64,000 nt of DNA from Gavia stellata (GCF_030936135.1 NC_082627.1:205172-269171), one strand, 5' to 3'; positions 3,961 to 55,635 are shown, numbered from the stretch's first letter. The notes: generated by a model from the letters alone, not told the origin. Numbers and translations are program-made.

Positions 3961-4120
3961 CCACATCGAACTTTGTTAAGTCACACTTTTATAACATCGT
4001 ATTTCAGTGAAACCACTTTTGCTGATACATTTGGCAGTGGTTCTTTAAGCAAGCTAAATTGCCCATTAGCAACAATACCCCACCCTTCCATGCCTCCAAC
4101 CCAAGCCATTCCATGATTCT
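3960..4120. repeat. Second copy of the ~110-bp repeat; ends in a CR1-like ATTCTATG tail motif
   Basis: Matches 1436-1620 and ends …gccattccatgattctatgg. Confidence 0.55.
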
Positions 4121-7850: not shown

Positions 7851-7879
7851 TTGAGCTTGGAGGAGGTAAAAAAAAAGTT

Positions 7880-21689: not shown

Positions 21690-22420
21690 ATCACAGAATC
21701 ATTAAGGTTGGAAAAGACCTGTAAGATCATCAAGTCCAACCATCAACTAACACCACCATGCCCACTAAACCATGTCCCACAATGCCACATCCACACGCTC
21801 CTTGAATACCTCCAGGGAGGGTGACTCCACTACCTCCCTGGGCAGCCTGGTCCAATGTTTCACCACTCTCTCAGTAATGAAGTTTTTCCTAGTATCCAGT
21901 CTGAACCACCCCTGGCGCAACTTGAGGCCATTTCCTCTTGTCCTGTCACTCGTCACTTGGTCGAAGAGACCAACACCCACCTCTCTGCAACCTCCTTTCA
22001 GGTAATTGTAGAGAGCGATGAGGTCTCCCCTCAGCCTCCTCTGCTCCAGGCTGAACAACCCCAGCTCCCTCAGCCACTCCTCATAAGACTTGTGCTCCAG
22101 ACCGCTCACCAGCTTCGTCGCCCTTCTCTGGACGCGCTCCAGCACCTCAATCTCCTTCTTGTAGTGAGGGGCCCAAAACTGAACACAGCATTCGAGGTGC
22201 GGCCTCACCAGCGCCGAGTACAGGGGCACGATCACCTCCCTGCTCCTGCTGGCCACACTATTTCTGATACAGGCCAGGATGCTACTGGCCTTCTTGGCCA
22301 CCTGGGCACACTGCTGGCTCTTCTTCAGGCGGCTGTCAACCAACACCCCTAGGTCCTTTTCTGCGGGGGAGCTTTCCAGCCACTCCTCCCCAAGCCTGTA
22401 GCATTGCATGGGGTTGAGAG
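21690..22420 (-). mobile_element. CR1 LINE 3' fragment (ORF2 C-terminus plus tail)
   Basis: Minus-strand ORF 21765-22409 encodes the CR1 ORF2 C-terminus (…[25 protein letters not shown]…[17 protein letters not shown]…[20 protein letters not shown]). The reverse-complemented tail lies at 21690-21765. Confidence 0.9.
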
Positions 22421-24289: not shown

Positions 24290-24945
24290 TGTATGTGCCC
24301 TGGGCATGCTGGTGGACACCAAGTTGACCACGAGCCAGCAATGTGCCCCCGTGGCAAAGAAGGCTGAGGATATCCTGGGCTGCATTAGGAGTGCTGCTCA
24401 GGGGAGGTGATCCTGCCCCTCAGCACTGGTGAGGCCCCACCTGGAGTGCTGTGTCCGGTGCTGGGCTCCCCAGTACAGGAAAGACACGGACATACTGGAG
24501 AGTCCAACAAAGGGCCACGAAGATGGTCAAGGCACTGGAGCATCTCCCCTAGGAGGAAAAGCTGAGAGAGCTGGGACTGTTCAGCCTGGAGAAGAGAAGG
24601 CTCAGGGGGACCTCATCAATACGTGTAAATACCTGAAGGGAGGGTGCAGAGAGGACGGAGCCAGGCTCTTTCCAGTGGTGCCCTGTGCCAGGACCAGAGG
24701 CAACGGGCACCAACTGTGAGACAGGCGGTTCCCTCTGAACATCAGCAAACACTTTTTCACTGTGAGGGTGACCGACACTGGCACAGGTTGCCCAGGGAGG
24801 TGGTGGAGTCTCCATCCTTGCCGGTATTTGAAACCCGACTAGACACGGCCATGGGCAACCAGCTCTAGGTGGCCCTGCTTGAGCAGGGCGGCTTGGGCCA
24901 GATGATCTCAAGACATCCTTTCCAGCCTAAACGACTCTGGCTCAT
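24290..24945 (+). mobile_element. CR1 LINE 3' fragment, near-identical to the copies at 1-1000 and 33290-34850
   Basis: Same sequence as 34240-34850 (…gacaccaagttgaccacgagccagcaatgtgcc…ggtgaggccccacctggagtgctgtgtccggtgctgggctccccagtacaggaaagacacggacatactggag…). It ends right at the CpG island. Confidence 0.85.
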
Positions 24946-24949
24946 GCCC

Positions 24950-26300
24950 AATTTACCCAGGCGACCGAGCAACCCAGCCCCCCGGGGCCACCTCCTGCGT
25001 GACCCCCTCAGTTCCTGAGGGACCCAGGCGCCCAGGTGCCCCCTGCCCTCCAAACCCCCTCGGCTTGTGTCTCGAATACTCACCGGTCCCCATCTCACTC
25101 CCCACCGTCTCCCCACAGCCTCCCCAGCTCCTGCGTCCCACCGTCCCCGTCCCACCTCGCCACGTCACCCCCACCAGCGGCAGGGGAGCGGCGGCGCATG
25201 CGTGCTGCCAGGGCGCGGCAGGCAAGATGGCGGCGCCGGTTGCCGAGCAACGGGGCCGGGCCTGGGGCGGTGGGTGCCGGCCTGCGCCCTGCGGGGCTGT
25301 GGCTCCCGCGGGAGCCTGGGCCGGTCTCCATCCCGGCCCCGCCGCCGGCGCCGGCCCCGACCCCTCTGCCCCCTTCCGCCCCGCCGCGGCGGGACCGGCC
25401 GCGCCCGCTTCGTCCCGTCCTGTGGCCCGGCCCAGCTGGGAGACCTCTGGCCCTGGGGCGGGGCAAACCGTGCCCTGGGGGGGGGTTAAACCCAGAGGCG
25501 GGCGGGGGAGGATGGGGGTAAATACCGCCCTGGAGGGGTCTGATTGTGCCCTTGGGGGGGGGTAGGTCCTGCCGGGGGCGGGGGGGGCACGGAGGGGCTG
25601 TAACCACGGGCCCGTGGGGCGGGCCCCGATGGGATGGGCCCTGCCTGCCCCCTGGGCTGGGCCTGGGCAAAGGCTTTTCCGGGCTCCCCTGCCCCACAGG
25701 GAAGTGCCCAGCCCCACAGCGAGTATCCTGCCCCACGGCGAGGTGGTCTCCTGCCGACGACGGTGAGGTCTCCTTCCCGCCCCCCCTGCACCCTCCCTCA
25801 GCCCCGTGGCAAGCTGGTCTGCCCCACAGCAAGCTTCCCTACCCCAGGCATCCCACCCTGCGGTGAGCTCCTCTGCCCCATGCTGAGCTCTTCTGCCCTC
25901 CCCCCGTGACCCATCTGCCCCACAGCAAGCTTTTCCCATCCCCTGCCAAGGTCTCCTACCCCATGAGCCCTATGGTGAGGTCTTCTGCCCCACTCCAGCA
26001 AGCTTATCTGCCCCACAGTGACATCATCTGCAGCTTTTCCACCCTGTGGCGAGGTCTCCCACCCCACCATGAGCCCCATGGGGAAGTCTTCTGCCTTTGT
26101 GTCGTTCCCCCCCACCCCCCCACCCCCCCCCAAATGAGCCCATCCATCCCACAGCAATCTCGTCAGCACCATAGCAAGCTTTTCCACCTTGTGGCAAGGT
26201 CTCCCACCCCACAGTGAGCCACAACAAGCTGTTCTGTCCCGCAGCAAGCTCATCTACACTCCGGGAAGGTCTCCTGCCCCACAGTGAAGACGCCTGCCCC
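24950..26300 (+). promoter_or_regulatory. MVP: CpG island, probable MVP promoter and 5' UTR region
   Basis: GC content is extreme and CpG is dense (ccgccgccggcgccggcccc…). It sits immediately upstream of the MVP start codon at 26301 and contains poly-C tracts at about 26105-26135. TSS not determinable from sequence. Confidence 0.6.
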
Positions 26301-26419
26301 ATGGGGGACCCTGTGATCCGCATACCCCCCTACCACTATGTCCATGTGCTGGACCTCAACAGCAACATCACTCGCGTGGAGGTTGGGCCCCACACCTACA
26401 TCCGGCAGGATCACGAGAG
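26301..26419 (+). CDS. MVP: MVP coding exon 1 ([39 protein letters not shown]-)
   Basis: The ATG is followed by a sequence matching the human MVP N-terminus ([36 protein letters not shown]). Donor gag|gtgggt. Confidence 0.9.
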
Positions 26420-26679
26420 GTGGGTGCTATGGGGCAGGGAGGCACCTATCAGTTCAGGGCGTCTGGTTCCTACCTCTGGCAGGACCAAAAAAGGTGACTG
26501 CTGTGGAACGGGGGGATCTATAGGATGATGGGTCCCACCCAGGACTGGCAGGACCTGTAGTCTGGCAGGACTACAAAATGTGGGTGCTACAGGACAGGGA
26601 GTAGATTTATGTGGCTGTAGGGTGATCTAGATTTATAGTTGTGGGGTCTCTGTAGGGCTGGGGGGGGCGGTGGTTGGGG

Positions 26680-26960
26680 GGCTCTACAGGGCCACGAGGG
26701 GGTTGAGAGGATCTGTAGGACCGTTGGTGCTATTTAGGGCTGTGGGGGATGCTGGGGGGCTGTTTAGGACTATGGGGGCTCTATGGGCCCTGAGAAGCAT
26801 TGCGGTTATATAGGGCCATGGGAGTGTTTGTGGGCTCTGTAGGGCCATAGGGGCTCTGTAGGGTTCTAAGGATTCCATAAAGCTGTAGAAGGCCATAGGA
26901 GGGCTGTGGGGCTCTATAGGACTGGGAGACTTGATGGGCTCTATAGGGCCTTGCGGGCTC
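26680..26960. repeat. Intronic minisatellite of CTATAGGGC-type units (MVP intron 1), reverse complement of the array at 27200-27440
   Basis: ctgtagggccataggggctctgtagggttct… units are repeated more than 20 times. Confidence 0.85.
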
Positions 26961-26997
26961 CATAGGGCCGAGGGGAGCAATGCGGGGCCACCCGCAG

Positions 26998-27193
26998 GGT
27001 GCTGTTCGCCCCCCAGCGCATGGTGATGGTGCCCCCCCGGCACTACTGTGTGGTGCTCAACCCCGTGGCCCGGGGCCCTGCGGGGTCCGTGCTGGTGGAT
27101 GGAGCGGGGCAGGCCCGTCTGCGGCACGCCGACCTCGATATCCGCCTGGCCCAGGAGCCCTTCCCCCTATACCCTGGCGAGGAGATCCAGCAG
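26998..27193 (+). CDS. MVP: MVP exon 2 ([66 protein letters not shown])
   Basis: Acceptor cccgcag|g and donor cag|gtacct. Phase is continuous and the protein matches human MVP residues about 40-105. Confidence 0.9.
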
Positions 27194-27199
27194 GTACCT

Positions 27200-27440
27200 G
27201 TCGCCCCCTATAGCAGCCCCAGGGCTCCCTATAGCTCCTCTAGACCTCCATGGTCCCCTATAGGCTCCATAACCCCTCTCTGTAACCCATCACTATAGCC
27301 TTCTGTGGCCACCCATAGCCCCTATAGCTCCTCTAATCCCTCTGTCATCTCTCAGTTCCTGTAGCCCATATAGCTTCCTATGCCCGCTCCTATAGCTGCC
27401 TCATCTCCTCCCACATTGCTCCTATAGCCCCTCCACAGCC
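27200..27440. repeat. Intronic minisatellite CCTATAGC(T/C)CC units (MVP intron 2)
   Basis: ccctatagcagccccagggctccctatagctcctctagacc…cctatagctcctctaatcc is read directly. Confidence 0.85.
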
Positions 27441-27449
27441 TCCTATACC

Positions 27450-27900
27450 CCCAGCGTGTCATCCCTGTCCCTTCTCTGAACCTGTGTACCTGTCCCCAGG
27501 GTGTCCCTGCGGTGTCCTCTCTTCCCAGGGTATCACCTATGTCCCCCACAGCGTCCCCCCATCCCCAGGCTGTCCCCCACATCCCCTGCAGTGAAAACCT
27601 GTGTCCCAGTCCCCAGGGTTTCACCCTTGTGTCCCCCGCCATTACCCCTGTGTCCCCCTTACCCCCACAACCCTGTCATGACCCCCATGTCCCCACATGC
27701 CCCATGTTGACGCCCCAGATACATCCCCACGTCCTCTGCAGTGACCCCCGCCATGGTCCCCATGTCTTCCGCCATGCAGACTGTGTTCCCAGAGTGTACC
27801 CAGAGCATCTCCCAAAGTTCCCCCCGCGCCCCTCGTCCCCATGTCCTCCACATCTCTGCTGTGACACCCATGTCCCCAGGAATTCTCCCTCAACCCCACA
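27450..27900. repeat. Pyrimidine-rich degenerate tandem array (gtccccc…ccatgtcccc units) in MVP intron 2
   Basis: ccccatgtcctc, cccatgtcccca and gtgtccccc recur. Confidence 0.6.
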
Positions 27901-27915
27901 TCCATGTGTCCCCAG

Positions 27916-28039
27916 GGCATCACCCCACTACAGGTGGTGCTGGCTGACACCGCCCTGCGCCTGCGGGCCCTGCTTGACTTCAAGGACGAGGACGGGAACA
28001 AGTTCGTGGCAGGAGACGAGTGGCTCTTCGAAGGGCCTG
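27916..28039 (+). CDS. MVP: MVP exon 3 ([42 protein letters not shown])
   Basis: Acceptor ccccag|g and donor ctg|gtgagc. Matches human [41 protein letters not shown]. Confidence 0.9.
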
Positions 28040-28112
28040 GTGAGCAGGGGGGTCACCCCCTTTTGGAGTCACCCTGGGGGACCCGTGGCCTGATGGTGCT
28101 ACCTGCCCGCAG

Positions 28113-28244
28113 GCACCTACATCCCCCGCAAGGAGGTGGAGGTGGCTGAGACGCTGCAGGCCACTGTCATTGGGCACAACCAGGCCATCCGCCTGCGAGC
28201 ACGCAAGGAGTGCCTCGACCGCTATGGCACCCGCCGTGTCACAG
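28113..28244 (+). CDS. MVP: MVP exon 4 ([44 protein letters not shown])
   Basis: Acceptor cccgcag|g and donor acag|gtagca. 132 nt, phase-consistent. Confidence 0.9.
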
Positions 28245-28329
28245 GTAGCACCCGGTAACACCCCCGTGGCCTCCTGACTTCAGCCCTCGCTCAGCGGCCT
28301 TGGTGTCAACTGGCACGATATCACCCTGT

Positions 28330-29060
28330 ACCATTGGTGCTACCCTTCGGCACACATGGGACCCCTCTGTTGCCTGAAGGCACCCCTGGGACACCCTGGG
28401 ACACCCCACCCCGTGCCTCTGGGACCCTTTTCTCACCCTCCAGCACCTCTGAGACCCCTGTGTCACCCTCCAGCACCCACGGGAACTCCATGTCATCTGA
28501 CAGCACCCCTGGGGCCTCCAGCACCCCCATCCCATCCCTCAGGACCCCTGGGACCCCCAGCACCCCCTTCCTACCCCACAGCATTCCCAGGACCCCTGTC
28601 CCATCTCTCAGTGCCCCTGGGATCCCCAGCATTCCCATCTCACCCCCTATACCCCCCCTCTGACCCCACAGCACCCCTGGTATCCCCAACTCGCTCATCC
28701 CACCCCTCATAAACCCCATCCTGCCCCACAGCACCCGTGGGACCCCATCTTATCCCCCAGCACCCATAGCACCAGTACCTCCAGGACTCCATCCCGGCAC
28801 CCTTAAGTATCCTCCCATCCCACCCTTAGGACCTCCCAACACCCTCAGGGCTGCCATCCCACCCATAGGACCCCTTGCCCACAGCACCCCTAGGATGCTT
28901 GAGATCCATAGGACCCTCAGCACCCCTAGGACCTCTGTGGCACCCCATGCTGCATGTTCCCCAGCATCCTCACAACCCACGTCTCACCCCAGTGCCCCTG
29001 GGACTCCTGGTCCCCTCCTCCCCAAAGCACCCCAGAGTTCTCAGCTCCCCCAGCACCCAT
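28330..29060. repeat. Intronic tandem array of ~24-27-bp units (cagcacccctgggaccccc variants) in MVP intron 4
   Basis: agcacccctgggatcccc, cagcacccctaggac and ccagcacccat recur about 25 times. Confidence 0.8.
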
Positions 29061-29074
29061 CACCCTGCTACCAG

Positions 29075-29169
29075 GTGAGGAGTGGCTGGTGAAGCAGGTG
29101 GGCGCTTACCTGCCCGGTGTCTACGAGGAGGTGGTTGACGTTGTGGACGCCTACATCCTCACTGACAAG
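29075..29169 (+). CDS. MVP: MVP exon 5 ([31 protein letters not shown])
   Basis: Acceptor ctaccag|gt and donor aag|gtactg. Matches human [32 protein letters not shown]. Confidence 0.9.
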
Positions 29170-29873
29170 GTACTGGGCAACCTAACCCTCGCCTCCTTGG
29201 TACCCACGGGTGACGAGGTCCCTCTGGGCTGGATTTGGGTGTCCTGTGTCCCTATTGCACTGCACCCATGGGTGACAGGAGCCCTCCAGAATGGGTGAAG
29301 GGTCCCATCACCCCTTCATCCACCACAGCCCTGACCCCTTGCGCCCACGGGGGACGAGGACCTTCCAGGGGGACCTGAGGATCCCTCCAAGCCACCGTGT
29401 TCCTGTGGCCCCTGCACCCATGACTGATGAGGACTCTCCAGGAGGTCCCAGCCCATGGTGTGCTTGTTATCCCTGCCTCAGTGTGTGATGAAAACCCTCC
29501 TGACCCACCACAGCCCACCATGACCCCTTTCCTGATGCACCCATGGGTGATGAAGACCCCCTGGGAGAGGTTTGGGCATCCCTGTTCCCTGTACCCCCTG
29601 CATCCATAGGTGATAAGGATGCCCAGGATGGGTTTGGGTGTCCCACGTACCAGTTCTCCTGCACTCATGGGTGACAAGGACCCTCCCGGGGGTTGTGCCC
29701 CCTCCACCCACTCCATCCCTGTCCCCCTGCACTCACAGGCAATGAGGTCCCTCAGGGGTAGGTTTGGGGGTCCCATCACCCTGTCTCCCTGCACCTGTGG
29801 GTGACAAGGCCTGTCGGGTCCAGTTTTGCATGTCCCATCACCCACCATGTCCCTGTGTGTGTCCCCCCTGCAG

Positions 29874-30110
29874 AAAGCCCTGCACCTGCGGGCAACGCGG
29901 ACCTTTGAGGACGAGCAAGGCCGGGTGCGGCGCACCGGTGAGGAGTGGCTGGTGACCCAGGCACAGAGTGAGGCCTACATCCCAGAGGTGTTCGAAGAGG
30001 TGGTGGCTGAGGTGGCGGTGACGACACTGGGCCCCCGGCAGTACTGCGTGGTGCTCGACCCTGTGGGGCCCAACGGGCAGCCCCAGCTGGGCCAGCAGCG
30101 CGTTGTCAAG
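29874..30110 (+). CDS. MVP: MVP exon 6 ([79 protein letters not shown])
   Basis: Acceptor ccctgcag|a and donor aag|gtgggc. 237 nt, 79 codons. Confidence 0.9.
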
Positions 30111-30119
30111 GTGGGCACC

Positions 30120-30720
30120 CGAAGGTGGCCCCTGGGGACCTGCAGGTGGCCCCAAAGGACCTTATGTAGCCTTAGCTTGCCCATAGGTATCAAAGGTGGT
30201 CCTGAGGGACCCTAAGACATGTGATGTAGTGCCATTGTGTCACCGGGGGACCCGCCTGAGAGACTCAAGAGTGGCTCCCAGGACCCAAGGGTGGTCCCAA
30301 GGGACATCAGGTGGCTCTGAGGGAACCTTGTGTATGCACAGGTGTCCACAAAAGTCTCAAAGGTGGCCCCAAGGGACCTCAATGTAGCCCTGAGGTGTCC
30401 CTGAAAGTCCCTAAGGCATACCTGAACATACCTTTGAGGTGTCCCCAAGGTGACCTGAGGGCCCCAGGGACCACAGGTGGCCCTGACGGACCCAAACGCA
30501 TCCCCAAAGGTTGCAAAGATAGTCTCAAGGGGCCCTAACTCACCTACATTAGCCCTGATGTCTTGCTGAAGGACCCTAACCTTCCATAGGAACCCATGTG
30601 TGGCCACCAGAAACCAGAAGCTGGCCCTGACATACCTGTAGACAGCCCTGAAGGTCTTGAAGGTGGCCCACAGGGATCCTAAGACATCCTTGAGGGACCC
30701 TAATGCACCTGTGTCCCTGC
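30120..30720. repeat. Intronic tandem array of ~30-bp units (aggtggccc[ct]gagggaccctaag…) in MVP intron 6
   Basis: ggtggcccctggggacc, ggtggtcctgagggaccctaag and aggtggccccaagggacctcaatgtagccctgaggtgtccc recur. Confidence 0.8.
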
Positions 30721-30875
30721 CCTGTGTCCCACCATGACCTGATGTCCTTCCCCTCTGTCCCACCACGTGCCCGTGCCCCTACTTCATGTCCCACCGTGTC
30801 CCAATGCCCCTGCCCCATATCCCCACCGCTTTGCTACTTCCCTGTCCTGCTGGTGACATGTCCTCACATCCCCAG

Positions 30876-31001
30876 GGGGAGAAGTCCTTCTTTCTGCAAC
30901 CGGGTGAGCGGCTCCAGGCTGGCATCCAGGATGTCTATGTGCTCTCTGAGGATGAGGGGCTGCTGCTCCAGGCGCTCCAGACCATCAAGGACACCAATGA
31001 G
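30876..31001 (+). CDS. MVP: MVP exon 7 ([42 protein letters not shown])
   Basis: Acceptor ccccag|g and donor gag|gtggcc. Matches human [41 protein letters not shown]. Confidence 0.9.
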
Positions 31002-31421
31002 GTGGCCCAGGGGACACCTGGGGTTTCAGGATCCCCCAGGGACACCTGGGGAGAAACTGAGGGAGGTCCAAGGAGGCTGGGATGACTGGGGCAACCAGGA
31101 GTGGTTGGGGGACAAAGGGGACCACTGAGGGGGGGGGGATCCAGGAATGGCTAGAGGCCCCAGGGGACACCTGGGGGGACTCATGTCTTCATCCCTGTGT
31201 CCCCAGGCCAGGCGAGTAGCAGAGGGACATGGGAGGAGTCCCTTCCACACTGTCCCCAAGCTGAGCAGCTCTGGGGAGGTTGTCCCTGTCTCCATGTCTT
31301 CAGGCTAGCCGGGTGGCAGAGGGCTGTGGGGGAATGTCTGTGTCCCCGTGTCCCCATCCAGGGGGTGGTGGGGGTCCCTGCATCCCCAGGCTGGTCACTG
31401 ATGCCATTCCCACATTCCCAG

Positions 31422-31580
31422 GAGGGGACGGAGGTGATGCGGCGGGCGGGTGACCGCTGGCTGGCCCGGGGCCCCCTCGAGTACGTGCCACCAGCCGAGG
31501 TGGCTGTGCTGGAGCGACGCCGGGCTGTGGCCCTTGCTGACAATGAGGGCATCTACGTGCGTGACATCCGCACTGGCAAG
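31422..31580 (+). CDS. MVP: MVP exon 8 ([53 protein letters not shown])
   Basis: Acceptor ttcccag|g and donor aag|gtgccc. Matches human [44 protein letters not shown]. Confidence 0.9.
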
Positions 31581-31589
31581 GTGCCCGCC

Positions 31590-32520
31590 CTGGCGCCACG
31601 GCTCCTATAACCCCTAGAGCTCCTTGTAGCCCCCTATAGCTCCCTGTTGGCCCTTATAGCTTCCTATAGCTCCTTTATAGCCTCCTTGGTGGCTTTCCAT
31701 AGCCCCATTACTGCTCCCTATAGCTCCCCATAGTCTTCTAGAGCTCCCCTACAATGCTCTGTAGCTCTCTATAGCTCCTTATAGCCCCCTGTAATCCTCC
31801 ATAGCCTCCCCAAACCCCTACAGCTCACCCATAGCCCTCTATAGCATCCTGCAGCCCCTGCCCCCCCCCGACCCCTGTAGCTTCCCCATAACACCTATAG
31901 CTCCCCAACTCCACAAGAGCTCCTTATAGCTTCCCATAACCCACATAGCCCACCATGGTTCCCCATAATACTTATGTAACCCCTATAGCCCACCGTAATC
32001 GTGCAAGCCCATATAGGCTCCCATACCCCTTCCCAGTGCCCCCAGTTCCCCTGCCAGTATTCTGCATTCCCCTAGTGCCCCCCATACCCTCTCCTAGTGC
32101 CACCAGCTGCCTCCCAGTGCTCCCAGTAACCGTATACCCCATCCCAGTATCCCCCCCCACTGCCTCCCAGTGCTCCCAGTTTTCCGTGTATCTCATCCCA
32201 GTGCCCCCAAACACAGTTCCAGTCTCTCAGCCCCCCTCTCAGTGCCCCCAGATATGCCCCCACCTCGTCCCAGTGCTCCCAGTACCCCATATACCTGCTC
32301 CCAATGCCTCCTAACCTCATCCCCATTCCCTCAAAGCCTCCCAGTGCCCCCAGTACCCCTCCACCACAACCTAGTGCTCCTGGTACCCCTTATACCTCTC
32401 CCAGTGCCTCCACACACCCCGTCCCAGTGCTCCTATCACCCCCCAATCCCCTCCCACTGCCCCCAGGCACCCCCTTCCAGTGCTCCCACCCCCACCCCCG
32501 CCCCCAGCAGCCATCCCAGC
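31590..32520. repeat. Two adjacent intronic arrays in MVP intron 8: CCTATAGC-type units (31590-31990), then cccagtgc[ct]cc units (31990-32520)
   Basis: ctcctataacccctagagctccttgtagccccctatagctccctgttggcccttatagc…, then ctcccagtgctcccagt…cccagtgcccccagtacccc. Confidence 0.85.
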
Positions 32521-32552
32521 CTGGCAGCACCCTGAGGTGGCTCTGGGTGCAG

Positions 32553-32803
32553 GTGCGGGTGGTGACGGGCCAGACCTACATGCTGACGGAGGCCGAGGAG
32601 CTGTGGGAGAAGGAGCTGGCCCCCGGGGTGGAGGCACTGCTGGCCGAAGCCCATGGAGACACCAGCGGCATGGATGCCTGGGTCCACTCCTCCTCCAGCC
32701 CGGATACTGGGGTCCACCAACGCGACCGCACCCGTGCCGTCACCTACCAGGTGCCCCACAATGCCGCTGTGCAGGTCTACGACTACCGGGAGCGGCGGGC
32801 ACG
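32553..32803 (+). CDS. MVP: MVP exon 9 ([30 protein letters not shown]…[18 protein letters not shown])
   Basis: Acceptor gtgcag|g and donor cacg|gtgagc. 251 nt, matches human [30 protein letters not shown]…[18 protein letters not shown]. Confidence 0.9.
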
Positions 32804-33289
32804 GTGAGCACCCGTGGTTCTGGGCATGGGGGAGAAGGGACATGGCGGGGAATGGAGGATGTGGGGGATTGGGGGTGGCGTAGGGGGAATACATGGGGAT
32901 GGAAGGGGCACAGAGGAGGATGCTGGGCACGAGGGTGCGAGTGATGTTGCTGCGACCCCTGTGCCGTGGTGTGTTCCTTGGGGTATCCTTGGAGTGACCA
33001 GTGTCCTTGGCATGACTGTGGCCAGGTGATGCTGGGCCCAGCGCTGGTGGTGCTGGGCCTGGGGGAGCAGGTGACGGTATGGGGACTGGTGTGTTCTTGG
33101 CACGTTACCCATGTCCTTCACATGTTTTTGGCATGTCACAGAGTGGTGCTGGGTACAGACCTGGTCATGTAGGGCCCTGCGGAGCAAATGACAGTGCAGG
33201 GACTCCTGTGTGACAGCACATTCTTGGCTTCAGTCTGTACGAGTCACACCCAGGGGTCCTCGGCTCTGGAGACCGGAGTGGAAGTCTGG

Positions 33290-34850
33290 TGCAAGGAAGA
33301 CCACCCTTGGTAGAAGAGGTTCAGGTTAAAGAATACTTAAGCAAATATATAGGTCCATGAGCCCTAATGGGATGCAGCTACAAGCGCTGAAGGAGCTGCC
33401 TGATGTCATTGAGAGGCCACTTTCGATAATCTTTTATCAATAATGGCGACTGGGAGAAGTGTCCAAAGACTGGAAACATCACCCTCATCTTCCAGAAGGA
33501 CAAGAAGGAGGACCCAGGGAACTACAGGCTGCTCAGCCTCAGCTCGATACCTGGGAAGGTGATGGAGCAGCTCATCCTGGAAACCATTTCCAGGCACGTG
33601 AGTGACAAGAAGATAATCAGGAGTAATCATCATGAATTCATCCAGGGGGAAATCATGCTCGACCAACCTGATAAACATCTCTGATGAAATGGCTGGGTTT
33701 GTAGATGAGAGGAGAGCAGTGGGTATTGTCTACCTGGACTTCAGGAAGGCCTTCGACACTTGCCTTGTCTCCCACAAGATCCTCATAGTGAAGCTGATGA
33801 AGTCTGGGCTGGATGAGCAGTGAGGTGGACGGAAAACTGGCTGAATGGCCAGGCCCAGAGCATGGTCATCAGTGGCACGAGGTCTAGTTGGAGGACAGTA
33901 ACTAGTGGTGTGACCCAGGGATCAATACTGGATCCAGTGCTGTTTAACGTCATTATTAATGATCCGGATGATGGGGCAGAGCGCACCCTCAGCAAGTTTG
34001 CAGAGGACACCAAACTGGGAGGAGTAGCTGAGAGACCAGAGAGTTGGGCTGCTGTCCGGAGGGACCTCAACAGGCTGGAGAAATGGGCTGACAGGAACGT
34101 CACGAAGATCAACAAGGGGAAGCGCAAAGCCCTGCCCCTGGGGAGGGACAACCCCAGGCACCGATATATGCTGGGGGCTGAACAGGTGGAAAGCAGCTCA
34201 GCAGAAAAGGACCTGGGGTCCTGGTGGACCCCAAGTTGACCACGAGCCAGCAATGTGCCCTTGCCAAAAACTGGCGAATGGTGTCCTGGGCTGCATTAGG
34301 AGGAGTGTTGCCAGCAGGTGGGGGAGGTGATCCTTCCCCTCGACTCAGCACTGGTGAGGCCCCACCTGGAGTGCTGTGTCCGGTGCTGGGCTCCCCAGTA
34401 CAGGAAAGACACGGACATACTGGAGAGTCCAACAAAGGGCCACGAAGATGGTCAAGGCACTGGAGCTTCTCCCCTAGGAGGAAAAGCTGAGAGAGCTGGG
34501 ACTGTTCAGCCTGGAGAAGAGAAGGCTCAGGGGGACCTCATCAATATGTGTAAATACCTGAAGGGAGGGTGCAGAGAGGACGGAGCCAGGCTCTTTCCAG
34601 TGGTGCCCAGTGCCAGGACCAGAGGCAACGGGCACCAACTGTGAGACAGGAGGTTCCCTCTGAACGTCAGCAAACGCTTTTTCACTGTGAGGGTGACCGA
34701 CACTGGCACAGGTTGCCCAGGGAGGTGGTGGAGTCTCCATCCTTGCCAGTATTTGAAACCTGACTAGACACGGCCATGGGCAACCAGCTCTAGGTGGCCC
34801 TGCTTGAGCAGGGCGGGTTGGGCCAGATGATCTTCAGGGGTCCCTCCACA
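33290..34850 (+). mobile_element. CR1 LINE (ORF2 RT and C-terminus, then tail) inserted in MVP intron 9
   Basis: ORF 33820-34239 carries CR1 ORF2 motifs (DPVLFNVIINDPDDG…SKFAEDTKLGG…KINKGKRKALPLG), and the tail gggttgggccagatgatct lies at about 34820. The antisense ORF 34109-34435 is 108/108 identical to ORF 32-358. Confidence 0.9.
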
Positions 34851-35135
34851 CTTCAGCCATGCTGTGACCCCATCATCCTGTGGTCCTGTGATATCTCCTT
34901 AGTGTGTCCTTGTCTTGTGACCTTTGTCCTTGGTATGTCACAGGGTGGTGTTGGGCACCCACATGTCACTGCGTGTCCTTGGTCCAGCAGGGTGGCACTG
35001 GGCCCTGGGAAGCAGCTGACAGTCCTGGGCCCAGCGTGTGTTGGCTTGTCCTTGGTGTGCTCTGGGCCCCTCCTGTGCAGGGTGGTGCCCCCAGCATGTC
35101 ACCTGTACCCTTGATGCGCTCCTGCCCTGTCACAG

Positions 35136-35333
35136 GGTGGTGCTGGGCCCCGAGCTGGTGGTGCTGGGTCCCGGAGAGCAGCTGACGGTCCTGTCACTCT
35201 CGGCGGGGCGCCCCAAGCGTCCCCATGCCCGCCGCAGCCTCTGCCTCCGCCTCGGCCCTGACTTCTGCGCTGACATCGTCACCATCGAGACGGCTGACCA
35301 CGCCCGCCTCCAGCTCCAGCTGGCCTATAACTG
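35136..35333 (+). CDS. MVP: MVP exon 10 ([66 protein letters not shown])
   Basis: Acceptor tcacag|g and donor ctg|gtgtgtg. Near-identical to human [66 protein letters not shown]. Confidence 0.92.
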
Positions 35334-35850
35334 GTGTGTGGGACTTCAGGGGGCCGGGTGTGAGCCTTGGGGGCGGGGCTAGGGCTGGGGACAGGGACAG
35401 CTTTGGGACTGGGGGCCCTGGGGCAGGACTTGGGCCATGGGGACATGGTCAAGCTGGGGGTGGGGCCTGGGACTTAGGGGTGGAGTCTGGTGGTATGGGT
35501 GGGGCTAGGCAAGGGGGAGGGGCCTCGGTCTTGGGGCGGGGCCAGAATGGGCAGGAGCCTGCAAGGGGGTGTGGCCTCGTGTGGGGTGTGGTGTGGTCTT
35601 GTGAGTGGGGTCAGGCAGTATGGGCAGGGCTGGGTCTTTGGGGTGGGGCACTGTGGGGGCAGGGCCTCTAGTGAAAGGGCGTGGTCTAGAGTGAGGAGGC
35701 GGGGCTTGGCAGCCAGGTAGAGCCAGACGCCAAATGGCCTTGGGGTGGGGGTGGCTCTGGGACAGGGTGGGGGCACGGCAGTGGGCGGGACCAGGGTGGG
35801 AGCAGCCCATGGTGGGCGAGGCATGAGGGCAGATCCCCCCTGTCCCGCAG

Positions 35851-35989
35851 GCACTTCGAGGTGCCGGAGGACCCCAAGGCCCTGGGGCGCCTCTTCAGCG
35901 TCCCCGACTTCGTGGGCGACGCCTGCAAGGCCCTGGCCTCCCGCGTGCGTGGCGCTGTGGCGGCTGTCACCTTCGACGACTTCCACAAG
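35851..35989 (+). CDS. MVP: MVP exon 11 ([46 protein letters not shown])
   Basis: Acceptor cccgcag|g and donor aag|gtctcc. Confidence 0.9.
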
Positions 35990-36343
35990 GTCTCCTCAGC
36001 TGCCCCCATGTCCCCCCCACCGCATCCCCTCGGTCATGCAAGCGTGCCCCCACTTTCACCCGCCTCACCCACAACCCCCACTGTTGCCCTGGGTCACCTT
36101 GTGACCTCCTCCATGTCTCCCTGGGTCCCTGATATCCCCTTGAGTCCTTGATGTCCCCAAGTGTCTTGCGTATCACCGGTGTCCCAAGAACTCAAAGATG
36201 TTGAACTACTCAGCCATGTTTGGCTTTAATGAAGCCCCATGTGTTCCCTGCTGCCTCCTCATGTCCCCAGTACCCCAACATCCTCAGTGTCCCCAGGTGA
36301 CCCTGACGTCCCCACGTGTCTCACATGTCTCTGCTGTCCCCAG

Positions 36344-36555
36344 AACTCCAATCGTCTTATCTGCTCGGCTGTATTTGGCTTCGATGAGGGCGGGCGGCTG
36401 CGAGAGCAGCTCTGCTTCGCTCCCAACGGGCTGGTGGTGACAAGCGTCGACATCCAGAGCGTGGAGCCCGTGGACCAGCGCACCCGTGATGCCCTGCAGC
36501 GCAGTGTCCAGCTGGCCATCGAGATCGCCACCAACTCCCAGGAGGCTGCCGCCAG
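36344..36555 (+). CDS. MVP: MVP exon 12 ([70 protein letters not shown]-)
   Basis: Acceptor tcccccag|a and donor gccag|gtcccc. Matches human NSARIIRTAVFGFE…[45 protein letters not shown]. Confidence 0.9.
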
Positions 36556-36612
36556 GTCCCCACGTCCCTCTGTGTCACCTCATGTCCCACCAGGTTCCTC
36601 CTGTGTCCCCCT

Positions 36613-36675
36613 GTGTCCCTCCAGCGCGCCTTCCAGCTGGAGATCAAGATCAGCACTAACTCCCAAGAGGCTGCT
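36613..36675 (+). repeat. MVP: Partial tandem duplicate of the 3' end of MVP exon 12, including a GT donor
   Basis: ccag|cgcgccttccagctggagatcaagatcagcactaactcccaagaggctgctgccag|gtttctg encodes [20 protein letters not shown]. The genuine exon end 57 nt upstream is cagcgcagtgtccagctggccatcgagatcgccaccaactcccaggaggctgccgccag|gtcccc, encoding [19 protein letters not shown]. Confidence 0.75.
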
Positions 36676-37029
36676 GCCAGGTTTCTGTGTCCCTTGTGCC
36701 CCCAAATGTCCCCCCATGCCCCACTACATCCCCCATATCCGTTAAGTCCCCCTATATCTTCCAATGTTTTGTCTTCCTATATGCCCCATGTTACTACATC
36801 CCCCTGTGTCCCTCAATATCCCTCGTGTCCCTAAATGTCCCCCGCATCACCCATGTTCTCCCTACCAATCGTGTCCCCCATACCCCCTACATCCCCCATA
36901 TCCTCAACATGCCCAGTTCTCCCCCCGTGTCCCCAATGTGCCCCACATCCTCAGTGTCTCCCCACACCCCCAACATCCCCTGCATCCCCCGCGCCTCCCC
37001 ACCTCTTGGTCCCTGTCCCCTGTCCCCAG

Positions 37030-37146
37030 GCACGAGGCAGAGCGGCTGGCACAGGAGGCCCGGGGACGCCTGGAGCGGCAGCGCATCCTGGACCAGGCGG
37101 AGGCCGAGCGGGCGCGCAGAGAACTGCTGGAGCTCGAGGCCCTCAG
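37030..37146 (+). CDS. MVP: MVP exon 13 ([38 protein letters not shown]-)
   Basis: Acceptor ccccag|g and donor ctcag|gtcggc. Matches human [39 protein letters not shown]. Confidence 0.9.
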
Positions 37147-37369
37147 GTCGGCCATCTTCCCAGCATGCACTGCAGGGGGGGGCCCCCCCGCAGGTCCTCT
37201 GCCTGTTTGGGGGCACCGGGGTCCTCCACCTTCCCAGGGAGCACCGGGGGTCCCTGCTTTCCCAGCATGCCCCAGGGTCCTCCACCTTCCCATGGGGCAT
37301 GGGGCAGGGTTTGCAGTGGGTGGGGCCCATGGTAGGCGGGCCAAGTGACTCTGCTTCCCCGCCCCCCAG

Positions 37370-37496
37370 CGTGGCAGTGGAGAGCACAGGGGCGGCCCGG
37401 GCGGAGGCGCAGGCTCGGGCAGAGGCCGCCCGCATCGAGGGCGAAGCTGCCATCCTGCAGGCCAAGCTGAAGGCTGAGGCCATCGCCATAGAGACG
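37370..37496 (+). CDS. MVP: MVP exon 14 ([43 protein letters not shown])
   Basis: Acceptor gccccccag|c and donor acg|gtgcgt. Confidence 0.9.
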
Positions 37497-37604
37497 GTGC
37501 GTGGGGGGCGGGGCCTGCCCTGGGGAGGTGCCCCGTGCCAGCTCTGCCTCTGGGAGGCGGAGCTGAGGGGTGGGGGCATGTCCCAATGGAGTCCCCGCCC
37601 ACAG

Positions 37605-37793
37605 GAGGCAGAGCTGTCACGGCTGGAGCGGGTGCAGGCCCAGGAGGTGCAGGCCCAGCGGGCGCGGGGGGAGGCAGAGGCGGCACGGGCCCAGGCGCTG
37701 GCAGCCGTGGAGGCCTCGCGGGTGCGGGAGGTAGCGGCCGCCCTGGGGCCCGACACCATCCGAGACATCGCCCGGGCCGGGCCCGAGCTCCAG
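37605..37793 (+). CDS. MVP: MVP exon 15 ([63 protein letters not shown])
   Basis: Acceptor cccacag|g and donor ccag|gtgagg. 189 nt, 63 codons. Confidence 0.9.
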
Positions 37794-38115
37794 GTGAGGG
37801 GGCGGGGCCTGGTGGGGTGGGGCCACAGAGGGCTGTGGGTGGAGCTAACTGGAGGGGTGGTGCCTGAAGGAGGCGTGGCCACCTGTAGGGGTGGAGCCTG
37901 CAGAGGGGTGCAGAGGCAGGGCCTTGGCTGGAGGTGGGGTCTCTATGGAGTGGGAGGGGCTTTGCTGGGCATGGCACCTCTGCACTGCCAGCAGGTGGTG
38001 CTGTCTTCATGGGGTGGGGTCTGTCGTGGTGGGGGAGTGGCTCACAGGTGCAGGGCTGGGGTTTGCTGAGGGGGCCCAGCCTGCCAGGAGTGGCCAGCAC
38101 CACACCCACCCCCAG

Positions 38116-38259
38116 GTGAAGCTGCTGCAGAGCCTGGGGCTGCAGTCCACCCTCATCACCGATGGCACCGCCCCCCTCAACCTCTTCACCACCGCCCGGG
38201 GGCTGCTGGGGCTGGCACCTCCCCCGGAAAGCTCTGCCCCCCAGGGCCCCACCCCCTGA
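38116..38259 (+). CDS. MVP: MVP terminal coding exon ([47 protein letters not shown], then stop)
   Basis: Acceptor cccccag|g, TGA at 38257-38259. Matches human [37 protein letters not shown]. Confidence 0.9.
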
Positions 38260-38320
38260 GGACCCAGGCATCCAGGCTCCCCAGGCTCCCCTCCTTTCCC
38301 GGAGCAGCCAGAAGCAGCCC

Positions 38321-38326
38321 AATAAA
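38321..38326 (+). terminator. MVP: MVP polyadenylation signal AATAAA
   Basis: aataaagtgagcagg lies 62 nt downstream of the stop codon. Confidence 0.7.
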
Positions 38327-45643: not shown

Positions 45644-45780
45644 TTATTCTTTCCCTCTAATTAAACTGCAGCTCTGCAAAACGCTTACATCTGGGTCACA
45701 AGTTACACTCAGATGAGAAAAAACACTTTTTCAGTTGAAGATTTCCATTAAGGAAACTTTATTTCGTTAAGGGTTATTTA

Positions 45781-45930
45781 CTGTGTCTCCTGGCCTGTCA
45801 GCAAATCCTCCACTCTCCCCATCCCAGCAAGCCACAATAAAGCAGCACAGTTTCCCCCCATCGATCCAGTGCAACCTGCCAATCGCCTCCAGAGAGGCTA
45901 GCACCCACCATGAATAACACACATCAGGGA
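45781..45930 (-). CDS. RABGGTB: RABGGTB exon ([50 protein letters not shown])
   Basis: Acceptor ttggcag|TTCCCT and donor ACA|gtaaat on the minus strand. 37/50 identical to human [50 protein letters not shown]. Confidence 0.85.
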
Positions 45931-46638
45931 ACTGCCAACAGAGAAGCAGAACATTATCTGGTTTTCTTTTAAACACGACGTTGTCAACTGTATTGGTGAT
46001 CCTGCAAACTACTAGCTGTGCTACTGTAATACTGTTGCAGAGAAACAACAAGAAAGTTCGTGGATGCAGTCTCTTTTTAGATGACCTCTTCCCTTCAAGA
46101 AACAAAAATGCACGAACACTGATTTTGAAACAGCCTTCACCGCCTACAGGAGAGGCTAGAAATCCACAGCACCTTTTTCACAAGTTATCTTTCAACTTAT
46201 TTTTTTTTTTTTAAGAAGAATCTGTTGGTTGATTATCCATTTGTCAGAGGAGTTTATTCCAGGTTACACAATTTCCTACTGTGACACAAAACACTATTAT
46301 GCCTGCGATTAACATCCAGTAAAACAGTAATTTTCCTACAAATCCTAAAGAAGAGATAATTCCCAACGACAAAAATATTCAGGCCCTGATTTAACAGGCT
46401 ACTGGTTCAAGTGGTCAGCAAGACATACTGCGGCACACATACTTGCCTAAAGCGAGGCCTCAAATGAAGAGTAGCTAAAGACTGGGTGGCAAGTGTTAAC
46501 GACAAAATGAAGAAGCAGAATGAAAGCCAGTTTACAAAGCATTTCATAAAAGTCTCAACATTTTCCAGGGATTCTTCAAATATAGAAAAAATAATATCTA
46601 CTGAGCTCTGAACAAACAAAAGCAACCCAAAAGCATAC

Positions 46639-55332: not shown

Positions 55333-55635
<303 letters not shown>

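Follow-up and report, generated by a model that had tools for sequence, protein, structure and literature searches.

The MVP gene of Gavia stellata has introns filled with tandem arrays, and two of these, in introns 1 and 2, lie in opposite orientation on either side of exon 2. The locus raises two questions: what the arrays are, and whether the pair around exon 2 acts in the RNA. We analysed a window of 64,000 nt (GCF_030936135.1 NC_082627.1:205172-269171), in which all positions are counted from the first letter. MVP exons were placed by tblastn and splice sites, and the gene and exon coordinates given by a previous sequence-only reading of this DNA were borne out, including those of exon 2, intron 1 (26420-26997) and the end of intron 8 (32552). 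The spliced 854-aa product is an exact match to XP_059688440.1 (RefSeq MVP, Gavia stellata), with the Pfam domains Vault, Vault_2/3/4 and MVP_shoulder. All 15 introns are GT-AG and the reading frame is intact.

Repetition of 8-mers exceeded that of dinucleotide shuffles in nine introns (1, 2, 4, 5, 6, 7, 8, 12 and 13; z 4.7-9.2). By the same measure the window flanks were mostly below z 3, with three exceptions at 5-10.7 kb (z 4.5-9.8), where Tandem Repeats Finder (TRF) calls short arrays. The arrays that the sequence-only reading had described in introns 1, 2, 4, 6 and 8 are thus real, but its description of them as long tandem arrays is overstated, as the units are degenerate (60-80% alike in the repeat search; blocks of 20-69 nt with 60-87% identity, TRF rows included). 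Within introns 1 and 2, TRF called no array. Introns 5, 7, 12 and 13 also carry arrays that were absent from the earlier list, as does the region just upstream of the ATG (25680-26290), which is probably a 5'UTR intron. One family gives way to another at exon boundaries; no block extends beyond its own intron, and the coding exons are intact. The arrays had been called unrelated, which holds only in part: the family in the 3' half of intron 2 is also found in introns 11 and 12 (direct 7-mer sharing of 8.9 and 11.5, respectively), and introns 10 and 15 have a G-rich family in common. As had been noted, such a density of intron-specific arrays in one gene is unusual.

Array periods cluster at 9-11 nt and its multiples, with autocorrelation peaks at 9-11, 19-21, 29-31 and 60-62 and TRF periods of 10, 20, 21, 30, 31, 39, 53, 60, 69 and 103. 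The MVP introns contain 35 G4 motifs, 10 on the coding and 25 on the template strand; each intron has them solely on its G-rich strand, which alternates from intron to intron.

Many array units resemble donors or acceptors, and the genuine donor is itself part of the units of introns 6 and 7. In intron 6, which has seven AGGTGG donor-like sites, the units repeat the end of exon 6 together with its donor, so that the TCAAG/GTGGGC junction becomes CAAAGGTGGCC; the reference copy of the intron 7 array crosses the exon 7/intron 7 junction (TGAG then GTGGCCCAGGGGACACCTGGGG). Copies of the start of exon 10 and the end of exon 12 lie in introns 9 and 12 (Table 1). Both begin at the exon border and exceed the shuffled-intron maximum of 31.9 bits as well as the 42.1-bit threshold of Hron et al. 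(PMC12954441). The exon 12 copy was also matched by tblastn, and a weaker copy of the exon 10 start is present at 34991-35027. In ostrich and emu, a 155-nt unit with the exon 2 tail and donor occurs in 22 and 17 copies, respectively.

Table 1. Features of the MVP locus in the loon window (D labels, repeat families; z, 8-mer repetition against dinucleotide shuffles)
Feature	Position	Strand	Details
MVP complete coding region	26301-38259	+	16 coding exons, 854 aa, Gavia stellata
5' degenerate array, just upstream of ATG	25680-26290	+	Units carry acceptor-like CTGCCCCACAG; D1-D4, 7 copies, 63-90% identity; TRF period 19 at 25687-25742
Intron 1 array, CTRTAGGG family, G-form (GGGCTCTRTAGGGCCATAGGGG)	26657-26986	+	D6, D12; 8 copies of 35 nt, 63-74% identity; z 8.9; GC skew +0.39
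Exon 2	26998-27193	+	196 nt, not a multiple of 3
Intron 2 array A, C-form of CTRTAGGG family (CCCCTATAGCYCC)	27200-27456	+	D11, D2, D8
Intron 2 array B, TGTCCCCA(GG) family, also in introns 11 and 12	27457-27915	+	Top 8-mers TGTCCCCA, GTCCCCAG
Intron 4 array, CAGCACCCCTGGGACCCC family	28337-29060	+	Periods 30/39/60/69; D1, D15, D16, D19, D20; TRF rows 28416-28747, 75-87% matches; z 8.7; 7 template-strand G4 motifs
Intron 5 array, period ~62 (CCTGCACCCATGGGTGACAAGGACCC)	29227-29818	+	D13, D17; lag-62 autocorrelation peak; z 7.1
Intron 6 array, period ~21	30111-30708	+	D3, D9: 9 copies, 61-81%; lag-21 peak
Intron 7 array	30998-31176	+	D14; z 4.7
Intron 8 array A, C-form CCTATAGCTC units	31584-31990	+	D2, D4, D5, D8; same family and orientation as intron 2 array A; TRF period 10, 18.3 copies, 58% matches
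Intron 8 array B, CTCCCAGTGCCCCCAGT family	32002-32490	+	Periods 22/53/103; TRF rows 32107-32486; D7, D10, D18
Copy of exon 10 nt 1-54 within intron 9	33025-33078	+	blastn 85% identity, 62.6 bits, proximal
Intron 12 array, (C/A)TGTCCCC family	36556-37029	+	z 4.8; TRF 36802-36914; GC skew -0.54
Copy of exon 12 nt 149-212 (last 64 nt, including CCAG/GT) in intron 12	36617-36680	+	blastn 80%, 58.1 bits, proximal
Intron 13 array, period 28	37209-37299	+	TRF 3.2 copies; z 6.0

The inverted pair at exon 2 is one family, CTRTAGGG / CCCTAYAG, of which intron 1 carries the G-form and introns 2 and 8 the C-form. The motif CT[AG]TAGGG occurs five times in intron 1 and nowhere else in MVP, and its complement CCCTAYAG four times in intron 2, four times in intron 8 and at no other MVP site; intron 1 has no C-form and intron 2 no G-form. 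Neither form was found in the 52 kb of the loon window outside MVP. The earlier statement that the intron 1 and intron 2 arrays are reverse complements is therefore correct at the level of the motif (five G-forms against four C-forms) but not of the arrays as wholes, as intron 1 aligns with the reverse complement of intron 2 at 61% over 237 nt (26657-26872 vs 27226-27455; 32.6 bits, shuffle maximum 29.7). The reported recurrence of the unit in intron 8 was confirmed, and intron 1 is in fact more complementary to intron 8 than to intron 2 (60% over 334 nt, 48.3 bits; shuffle maximum 28.3). G-form and C-form arrays are 57-66% identical, even in the young palaeognath arrays. Terrapin MVP, used as a positive control, carries a 57-62-nt unit whose orientation in intron 4 is opposite to that in intron 7, and these arrays align at 78-87% over 167-340 nt (E 3e-77).

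The folding analyses gave no support to the long intron 1:intron 2 stem that had been proposed. Between the two introns the longest uninterrupted helix measures 11 bp, or 13 when G-U pairs are allowed, no more than shuffled partners give; across the seven birds compared its length is 9-15 nt, in no case exceeding that of shuffles. The best inverted arm pair (I7) is 23 nt at 78%, with many G-U pairs. A duplex dG near zero had been named as a finding against pairing; the energies are far from zero (cofold ddG -59.9 kcal/mol; duplexfold -215), but a dinucleotide-shuffled partner gives nearly the same values (-48.5±7.4, z about -1.5, for cofold; -189±8 for duplexfold). Folded together, intron 1, exon 2 and intron 2 form 259 intron 1:intron 2 pairs in the MFE structure, compared with 250±38 when intron 2 is shuffled (MFE -633.7 vs -610.7±8.4). 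Because shuffling intron 2 leaves the pair count unchanged, the prediction comes from the opposite skew of a G-rich intron 1 (+0.39) and a C-rich intron 2 (-0.48), and the predicted pairing is a by-product of this skew rather than of array complementarity. In these models exon 2 is not enclosed by a long RNA stem, and only short helices of at most 11 bp are expected.

Loon MVP was compared with that of gull, merganser, ptarmigan, cuckoo, ostrich and emu, making seven birds, with terrapin and lizard as outgroups. Unit families, strand and GC-skew sign of the loon introns are the same in the orthologous introns of the six other birds. By 7-mer spectra, the same-numbered intron is the best match for loon introns in gull, merganser, ptarmigan, cuckoo and ostrich, which was not found in terrapin; emu introns have the loon's unit families, and emu intron 13 carries the CTTCCCAG family of the loon intron 13 array. 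Since the arrays are kept in related birds, the refutation that the sequence-only reading had foreseen, their absence from related species, fails. Families common to neognath and palaeognath birds must be older than the last common ancestor of living birds, which dates back more than about 100 Myr. Per-intron GC skew correlates among the seven birds with r 0.93-0.99, its sign being nearly invariant, and between birds and terrapin with r 0.68 (permutation p 0.007), while the lizard ortholog has neither GC skew nor arrays. The opposite orientation of the CTRTAGGG family across exon 2 is kept from ostrich to loon. A purely neutral DNA process does not explain the conserved alternation of skew and the G-form/C-form orientation.

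Intron lengths differ between species (270-4647 nt for intron 1 and 82-904 nt for intron 5), and the 270-nt intron 1 of ptarmigan has no motif of the CTRTAGGG family. The introns of loon, gull and merganser are colinear, and the differences are confined to the size of the arrays and their higher-order structure. Between loon and gull, introns 1-9 are 0.78-0.87 identical over >90% of length, with four-fold sites at 0.82; loon-merganser identity is 0.70-0.76 (introns 1-8; 0.57-0.76 overall), with four-fold sites at 0.73. Because intron identity equals four-fold-site identity in both comparisons, the MVP intron arrays evolve neutrally.

Classical vertebrate minisatellites are GC-rich, strand-skewed and located in subtelomeric or high-recombination regions, with units of 10-60 nt and higher-order periods, and they grow by unequal exchange or conversion. 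The MVP arrays are likewise GC-rich and strand-skewed, with units of that size and higher-order periods; what sets them apart is that many different families sit side by side in successive introns of a single 12-kb gene, with exons on both sides of each. Hron et al. (2026, Genome Biol Evol, PMC12954441) described 'sequence stuttering' of GC-rich avian genes, both intronic and exonic, which is tied to dot chromosomes, has intraspecific length variation as one of three defining features and leaves expansions of differing sequence in the orthologous introns of related species. MVP resembles these genes in having one to a few imperfect local families per intron, in blocks of tens of bases with the exons spared, in the copying of the exon 10 start and exon 12 end to the neighbouring intron, and in its GC-rich, G4-prone sequence. 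Unlike the large and polymorphic expansions of stuttering, however, the loon arrays measure 0.2-0.7 kb, are 60-80% alike and have been static over tens of Myr, and the repeat families are common to the orthologous introns of all birds sampled. MVP is not among the 115 exon-stuttering genes listed by Hron et al. (PMC12954441). According to a zebra finch T2T preprint (10.1101/2025.10.17.683159), >70% of the introns on dot chromosomes are minisatellites, and their units are multiples of 10-11 bp. MVP introns are similarly filled, with units of ~10-11 bp multiples that overlap G4 motifs, although the intronic G4 motifs of that survey are mostly on the coding strand, whereas those of MVP alternate and include the 25 on the template.

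Taken together, we consider it likely that the MVP arrays are what remains, in decayed form, of minisatellite expansions of the stuttering type (PMC12954441) that were confined to introns. Each long intron has its own imperfect tandem family, with a unit often of ~10 nt or a multiple, and some units are copied from the adjacent exon edge along with its splice site. The arrays would have originated in the DNA itself, through slippage, unequal exchange or gene conversion, where the sequence was G4-prone, strand-skewed and GC-rich. In the loon lineage they are static, colinear with those of gull and merganser and diverging at the synonymous-site rate, and they would leave with the spliced introns, having no sequence-specific role in RNA.

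Loon MVP adjoins a RABGGTB-like (prenyltransferase) gene that hosts SNORD45 and an ACADM-like acyl-CoA dehydrogenase gene. The DNA beside it is AT-richer (36-45% GC) and without arrays; unlike the genes of the stuttering study (PMC12954441), loon MVP has no evident dot-chromosome setting. The sequence that bears it spans 3.49 Mb. In ostrich and emu, MVP has kept kinesin/TLCD3B-type neighbours and lies on 3.3-4.8-Mb chromosomes, and chicken MVP is reported on chromosome 24 (PMC13064311). We conclude that loon MVP is a decayed example of stuttering in a non-ancestral neighbourhood, not obviously on a dot chromosome.

Other explanations of the arrays were weighed against the same data. In birds, tandem repeats of high GC content are difficult to sequence (PMC9021737), but we give next to no credence to an assembly artefact, such as collapsed or chimeric repeats: the same families are present in seven independent assemblies, loon introns 1-9 are colinear with the independent gull assembly at neutral identity, and splice sites and reading frame are all intact. 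It is also unlikely that the CTRTAGGG family comes from a dispersed repeat or satellite, not from the locus itself, which entered introns 1, 2 and 8 in differing orientations and was then amplified. One family in three introns and two orientations would fit such an origin, as would the terrapin unit in introns 4 and 7, but the motif is absent from the 52-kb loon flank and occurs at most four times in any 6-20 kb flank of the six other bird MVP loci, no transposon-like ends or coding remnants were seen, and the two forms are already dissimilar in young palaeognath arrays. G-run-rich introns could recruit hnRNP H/F-type proteins and C-rich introns PCBP/PTB-type proteins. The arrays or their skew might accordingly be splicing signals, acting through such recruitment or through non-specific pairing of G-rich with C-rich introns that helps to define the small exons of a GC-rich gene. 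The nearly invariant sign of the skew in birds, shared in part by terrapin, the many donor- or acceptor-like units, and the alternation between introns, which transcription-coupled mutation bias would not yield, are consistent with this proposal. Nevertheless, we find it improbable, as inheritance of the same arrays is enough to explain why birds share the skew, with no need for selection, divergence is neutral, the gene is retained despite the wide length range of introns 1 and 5, the lizard ortholog lacks both skew and arrays, and the skew of the short terrapin introns may stem from the polypyrimidine tract alone.

More improbable still is the proposal that exon 2 is looped out by pre-mRNA pairing between the arrays of introns 1 and 2, resulting in skipping or an exon 2 circular RNA. 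As in systems of inverted-repeat circularization or skipping (PMC4201285), exon 2 is flanked by related, opposite repeats near its splice sites. Their orientation is conserved, folding does predict intron 1:intron 2 pairs with a favourable cofold energy, and the intron 2 array begins 7 nt past the donor and would thus be transcribed right after exon 2. However, circularization of minigenes needs well-paired repeats of roughly 30-40 nt, and G-U wobbles as well as cryptic donors hinder it (Liang and Wilusz 2014, PMC4201285), and Alu pairs that drive circularization are 82% identical over 287 nt (PMC4201285). The MVP helices and best arms fall short of this, the overall identity is lower, and neither pair counts nor energies clearly exceed those of shuffled partners. 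Furthermore, intron 8 is a better match for intron 1 than intron 2 is, the arrays diverge as fast as neutral sites, and ptarmigan intron 1 has shrunk and is motif-free. Skipping of exon 2 would cause a frameshift with a stop at codon 131, and all 13 annotated bird MVP products, from Gavia and 12 other birds, keep the exon, in a check that covers protein products only, as frameshifted or circular products are not annotated as proteins. The human MVP circular RNA derives from exon 8, not exon 2 (PMC11667818).

Using a human MVP sequence as the query, we found that human MVP aligns exon by exon with 26.3-38.3 kb of the window on the + strand. The resulting model has 16 exons, GT-AG introns throughout and 854 open codons; Pfam recognizes Vault repeats and the MVP shoulder domain in the product. 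The spliced product is identical to XP_059688440.1 ('major vault protein [Gavia stellata]'), and our model coincides with the one in RefSeq. The gene boundaries used in the sequence-only reading (intron 1 at 26420-26997, exon 2 at 26998-27193, the end of intron 8 at 32552) were correct. No tRNAs were found in the window, and Rfam at gathering thresholds gave no structured RNA in the MVP introns, its sole match being a SNORD45 outside the gene.

The tandem arrays previously described for introns 1, 2, 4, 6 and 8 are real, yet degenerate, and that list was incomplete, having missed introns 5, 7, 12 and 13 as well as the 5' region. Recurrence of 8-mers exceeded dinucleotide-preserving shuffles in introns 1, 2, 4, 5, 6, 7, 8, 12 and 13 (z 4.7-9.2). 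Samples of 700 nt from the flanks mostly gave z<3; the exceptions were three at 5-10.7 kb (z 4.5-9.8), where Tandem Repeats Finder (TRF) also reports short arrays. Inside MVP, TRF detects only the better-preserved parts (introns 4, 6 and 8), and at a score threshold of 40 it found no array inside introns 1 and 2. Recovering the repeats of introns 1 and 2 required K-mer and shuffle statistics together with gapless repeat families, which in the MVP introns have 6-12 copies at 60-82% identity. Array periods concentrate near 9-11 nt and multiples thereof. The description of the arrays as unrelated was partly wrong: introns 11 and 12 share the TGTCCCCA family with the 3' half of intron 2, and a G-rich family links introns 10 and 15. 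The repeat-filled introns end at the gene ends, and MVP forms a sharply bounded GC-rich island (24900-41000, 0.56-0.73 GC) between a left flank of 0.44-0.53 and a right flank of 0.35-0.46 GC. Within 26420-38115, the sign of the G/C skew alternates: introns 1, 7, 9, 10, 14 and 15 have positive values, introns 2, 4, 8, 11 and 12 negative ones. Each of the 35 G4 motifs in the MVP introns lies on the locally G-rich strand.

The sequence-only reading had proposed that inverted arrays in introns 1 and 2 could pair into a long stem, looping out exon 2 and promoting its skipping or circularization. At the motif level the inverted pair was borne out: intron 1 has five copies of CT[AG]TAGGG, and introns 2 and 8 have four apiece of its complement, CCCTA[CT]AG, with neither form found in the 52 kb outside MVP. 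However, the complementarity is weak: when intron 1 is aligned with intron 2 in reverse complement, 61% of positions agree over 237 nt (32.6 bits; shuffle maximum 29.7). Intron 1 is more complementary to intron 8 (60% over 334 nt, 48.3 bits; shuffle maximum 28.3). Without interruption, introns 1 and 2 can form a helix of at most 11 bp, or 13 bp when G-U pairs are allowed, and shuffled partners reach the same length. Cofolding of 26680-26960 with 27200-27440 in ViennaRNA gave a strong energy of -59.9 kcal/mol relative to the separate folds, but one nearly equalled by a shuffled partner (-48.5±7.4); for the same two segments duplexfold gave -215, compared with -189±8 for a dinucleotide-shuffled partner. 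In the MFE fold of intron 1-exon 2-intron 2 (1496 nt), 259 pairs joined the two introns, compared with 250±38 when intron 2 was shuffled, and shuffling shifted the energy by only 23 of 634 kcal/mol. Because the shuffles perform almost equally and the introns have opposite GC skews (intron 1 +0.39, G-rich; intron 2 -0.48, C-rich), we conclude that the predicted pairing is a composition effect. In such folding calculations a G-rich RNA will 'pair' with whatever C/U-rich RNA it is given, and 'pairing' of this kind derived from thermodynamics is to be treated as a composition artefact unless checked against shuffles.

As a positive control for the pairing method, we used introns 4 and 7 of terrapin MVP, which hold a genuine inverted pair. 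The two terrapin arrays are reverse complements at 78-87% over 167-340 nt (E 3e-77), making these introns far more plausible partners for intron-intron pairing than any in loon MVP; intron arrays are therefore not limited to birds. In minigene experiments, circularization was supported by inverted repeats of ~30-40 nt with good complementarity and inhibited by G-U wobbles and cryptic donors (PMC4201285).

Because exon 2 is 196 nt long, skipping it would yield a stop at codon 131. The single MVP product annotated in Gavia includes exon 2, and no skipping of this exon was found among 12 other annotated bird products, all of which contain it. Isoform X3 of Nyctibius grandis MVP (P0019) is without residues 548-663, corresponding to exons 11 and 12 (351 nt, in frame). 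A link to the human circular MVP RNA, circMVP, was rejected because circMVP comes from exon 8. Judged by sequence, no feature sets exon 2 apart. What the sequence-only reading observed was largely correct; the exon 2 mechanism that it proposed is not supported by the controls, though skipping or circularization may occur at a low level.

We compared the MVP loci of gull, cuckoo, merganser, ptarmigan, ostrich, emu, terrapin and wall lizard, with all exons mapped. Absence of the arrays from relatives, which the sequence-only reading had named as part of a refutation, was not what we found: introns are repetitive in every bird sampled. In five of five birds tested, ostrich included, the best match to the 7-mer spectrum of a loon intron was the same-numbered intron, and no match was seen among terrapin introns. 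Emu introns share the loon families CTATAGGG (intron 1), CCTATAGC (intron 2), GGTGGCCC (intron 6), CTCCCAGT (intron 8) and CTTCCCAG (intron 13). Wherever the CTRTAGGG family survives, the orientation of its G-form (CT[AG]TAGGG) and C-form (the complement) is identical; G-form/C-form counts in introns 1, 2 and 8 are 99/3, 0/91 and 0/22 in ostrich and 49/14, 4/38 and 0/26 in emu. The per-intron GC skew pattern hardly differs among seven birds (r 0.93-0.99) and is shared in part by terrapin (r 0.68, p 0.007); for lizard r is 0.60, though lizard skews are near zero. Lizard MVP introns are unskewed, have 45% GC and showed no arrays. Because ostrich and emu carry the same families, orientation and skew, we infer that the families predate the palaeognath-neognath split.

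Several other origins for these patterns were considered. A dispersed-repeat origin of the CTRTAGGG family was not supported, the motif being essentially limited to MVP across seven loci. That introns 1 and 2 once held a perfect inverted repeat that later decayed is likewise unsupported, as the young palaeognath arrays are just 57-66% complementary; no sampled bird had intron 1:intron 2 complementarity above 57-66% identity or a perfect stretch >15 nt, and the pair was therefore never a good inverted repeat in the sampled lineages. An assembly artefact was rejected because orthologous introns align colinearly. Between loon and gull, introns 1-9 are colinear over >90% of their length with an identity of 0.78-0.87, four-fold sites giving 0.82; between loon and merganser, identity is 0.70-0.76 in introns 1-8 (0.57-0.76 over all introns) and 0.73 at four-fold sites. 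Because intron identity is close to that of four-fold sites, the loon-lineage arrays are neither conserved beyond neutrality nor being homogenized; they are fossils. Ostrich and emu MVP extend over 28-32 kb; their arrays measure 1-5 kb, and identity among the units is 91-97%. In both, a 155-nt unit contains the last ~85 nt of exon 2, the GT donor and CCCCTATAG repeats, and its tandem array puts many decoy exon 2 donors into intron 2.

In chicken, local expansion of a single imperfect motif, or of a few, can fill an intron in exon-bounded blocks, and an exon edge with its splice site is sometimes copied into the intron (Hron et al., Genome Biol Evol 2026, PMC12954441). This 'sequence stuttering' has been linked with dot chromosomes, with a high GC content and with the potential to form G-quadruplexes, and was deemed recent and polymorphic (PMC12954441). 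According to a zebra finch T2T preprint, minisatellites make up >70% of the intron sequence on dot chromosomes, and their unit lengths are multiples of 10-11 bp (10.1101/2025.10.17.683159). Repeating Hron's exon-stuttering screen on loon MVP, we obtained three matches above shuffled controls, all three proximal. The two strong matches both begin exactly at an exon border, and the units of introns 6 and 7 contain real donor sequence. These sequence features lead us to place loon MVP, as a probable decayed instance, in the sequence-stuttering class. In contrast to the stuttering described by Hron et al., the loon arrays are decayed and static, their families are conserved among orthologous introns of birds, and the setting is not evidently a dot chromosome; MVP is not listed in the supplement of that study. 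On this placement, the loon arrays would be explained as a decayed case of a bird repeat phenomenon described in 2026 rather than as a novel splicing device, and sequence stuttering would also reach a gene that is not evidently in a dot-chromosome setting. Repeat families can, moreover, be conserved between corresponding introns of all living bird lineages, unlike the independent, recent expansions that publications so far suggest.

Downstream of loon MVP, where the flanks have 36-45% GC and are without arrays, lie a RABGGTB-like and an ACADM-like gene, a pair that we take to be the RABGGTB-ACADM arrangement of human 1p31. The host gene of SNORD45 is RABGGTB, and the SNORD45 found here presumably lies in an intron of the RABGGTB-like gene. 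This gene has a CpG-rich 5' end near 49.5-50.2 kb. The merganser neighbourhood is colinear with that of loon over the RABGGTB-like/ACADM-like region (window 41000-64000, - strand; comparison locus L007, 31852-34152). The neighbours of MVP are Robl_LC7 and GGT in cuckoo, a G2E3-like gene in ptarmigan, and kinesin and TLCD3B-type genes in ostrich and emu, the last representing 16p11.2-type synteny. PPP4C and ALDOA are 16p11.2 neighbours of MVP in human. Both genes, on chicken chromosome 38, are in the supplement of Hron et al. (PMC12954441), and chicken MVP is reported on chromosome 24 (PMC13064311). MVP has apparently changed its surroundings several times within birds. The different settings suggest, but do not prove, that turnover continues where MVP kept its ancestral small-chromosome context and stopped where it moved.

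Tentatively, and with slightly more doubt than conviction, we propose that bird MVP may offer a natural experiment on the drivers of stuttering, in which the same old families are active only in the ancestral small-chromosome neighbourhood (ostrich, emu) and frozen elsewhere (loon, gull, merganser). If so, repeat turnover would be set by chromosomal context, such as the recombination or replication environment, and not by repeat sequence, and the seeds would far predate the 'evolutionarily recent' events described to date. The frozen and active arrays of the same families offer a handle on whether chromosomal context drives the instability. More speculatively, the conserved pattern in which G-rich introns alternate with C-rich ones might play a part in pre-mRNA folding or exon definition.

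Features in the loon window and in the comparison loci
Locus	Feature	Position	Strand	Remarks
Loon	CR1-like reverse-transcriptase fragment	228-965	-	upstream of MVP
Loon	CR1-like reverse-transcriptase fragment	4121-5188	+	upstream of MVP; Pfam RVT_1 confirmed for the ORF
Loon	CR1-like reverse-transcriptase fragment	5748-6316	-	upstream of MVP
Loon	CR1-like reverse-transcriptase fragment	6950-7741	-	
Loon	CR1-like reverse-transcriptase fragment	21765-22409	-	
Loon	CR1-like reverse-transcriptase fragment	24429-24719	+	
Loon	101-nt unit x2	2362-2559		87% matches; outside MVP
Loon	33-nt unit x2.4	8065-8141		97%; outside MVP
Loon	(ATT)19	10037-10094		outside MVP
Loon	5' array	600 nt upstream of ATG		absent from the sequence-only list
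Loon	Intron 5 array			period 62; absent from the sequence-only list
Loon	Copy of exon 10 first 54 nt	33025-33078		exon-stuttering screen, strong
Loon	CR1-type LINE fragment with reverse-transcriptase reading-frame pieces	33250-34850	+	inside MVP intron 9
Loon	Copy of exon 12 last 64 nt	36617-36680		exon-stuttering screen, strong
Loon	Prenyltransferase exon (RABGGTB-like gene)	45767-46105	-	downstream of MVP
Loon	SNORD45 C/D-box snoRNA	48960-49044	-	62.3 bits, gathering score 42
Loon	Acyl-CoA dehydrogenase exon (ACADM-like gene)	55330-55626	-	downstream of MVP
Loon	13-nt satellite TTGTAAGTTTAAG	58067-58510		34 copies, 99% matches; AT-rich, near/within ACADM-like gene
Ostrich (L005)	155-nt unit	8201-12263		~22 tandem copies, 91% matches
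Emu (L011)	155-nt unit	6046-8679		17 tandem copies, 95%
Terrapin (L006)	Inverted arrays, intron 4/intron 7	3880-4495, 6689-7056		57-62-nt units, exons 5-7 between

The 25 kb upstream of MVP are dense in CR1-like fragments in both orientations. Within the gene, degenerate copies of the exon 10 start flank the CR1 fragment of intron 9 (~33027, 33147, 34943, 34991 and 35080). Annotated bird MVP products range from 821 to 922 aa, and we attribute these differences among automated annotations to decoy splice sites and exon-edge copies. Several of the annotations carry N-terminal extensions of 31-70 aa, which probably read into the 5' array.
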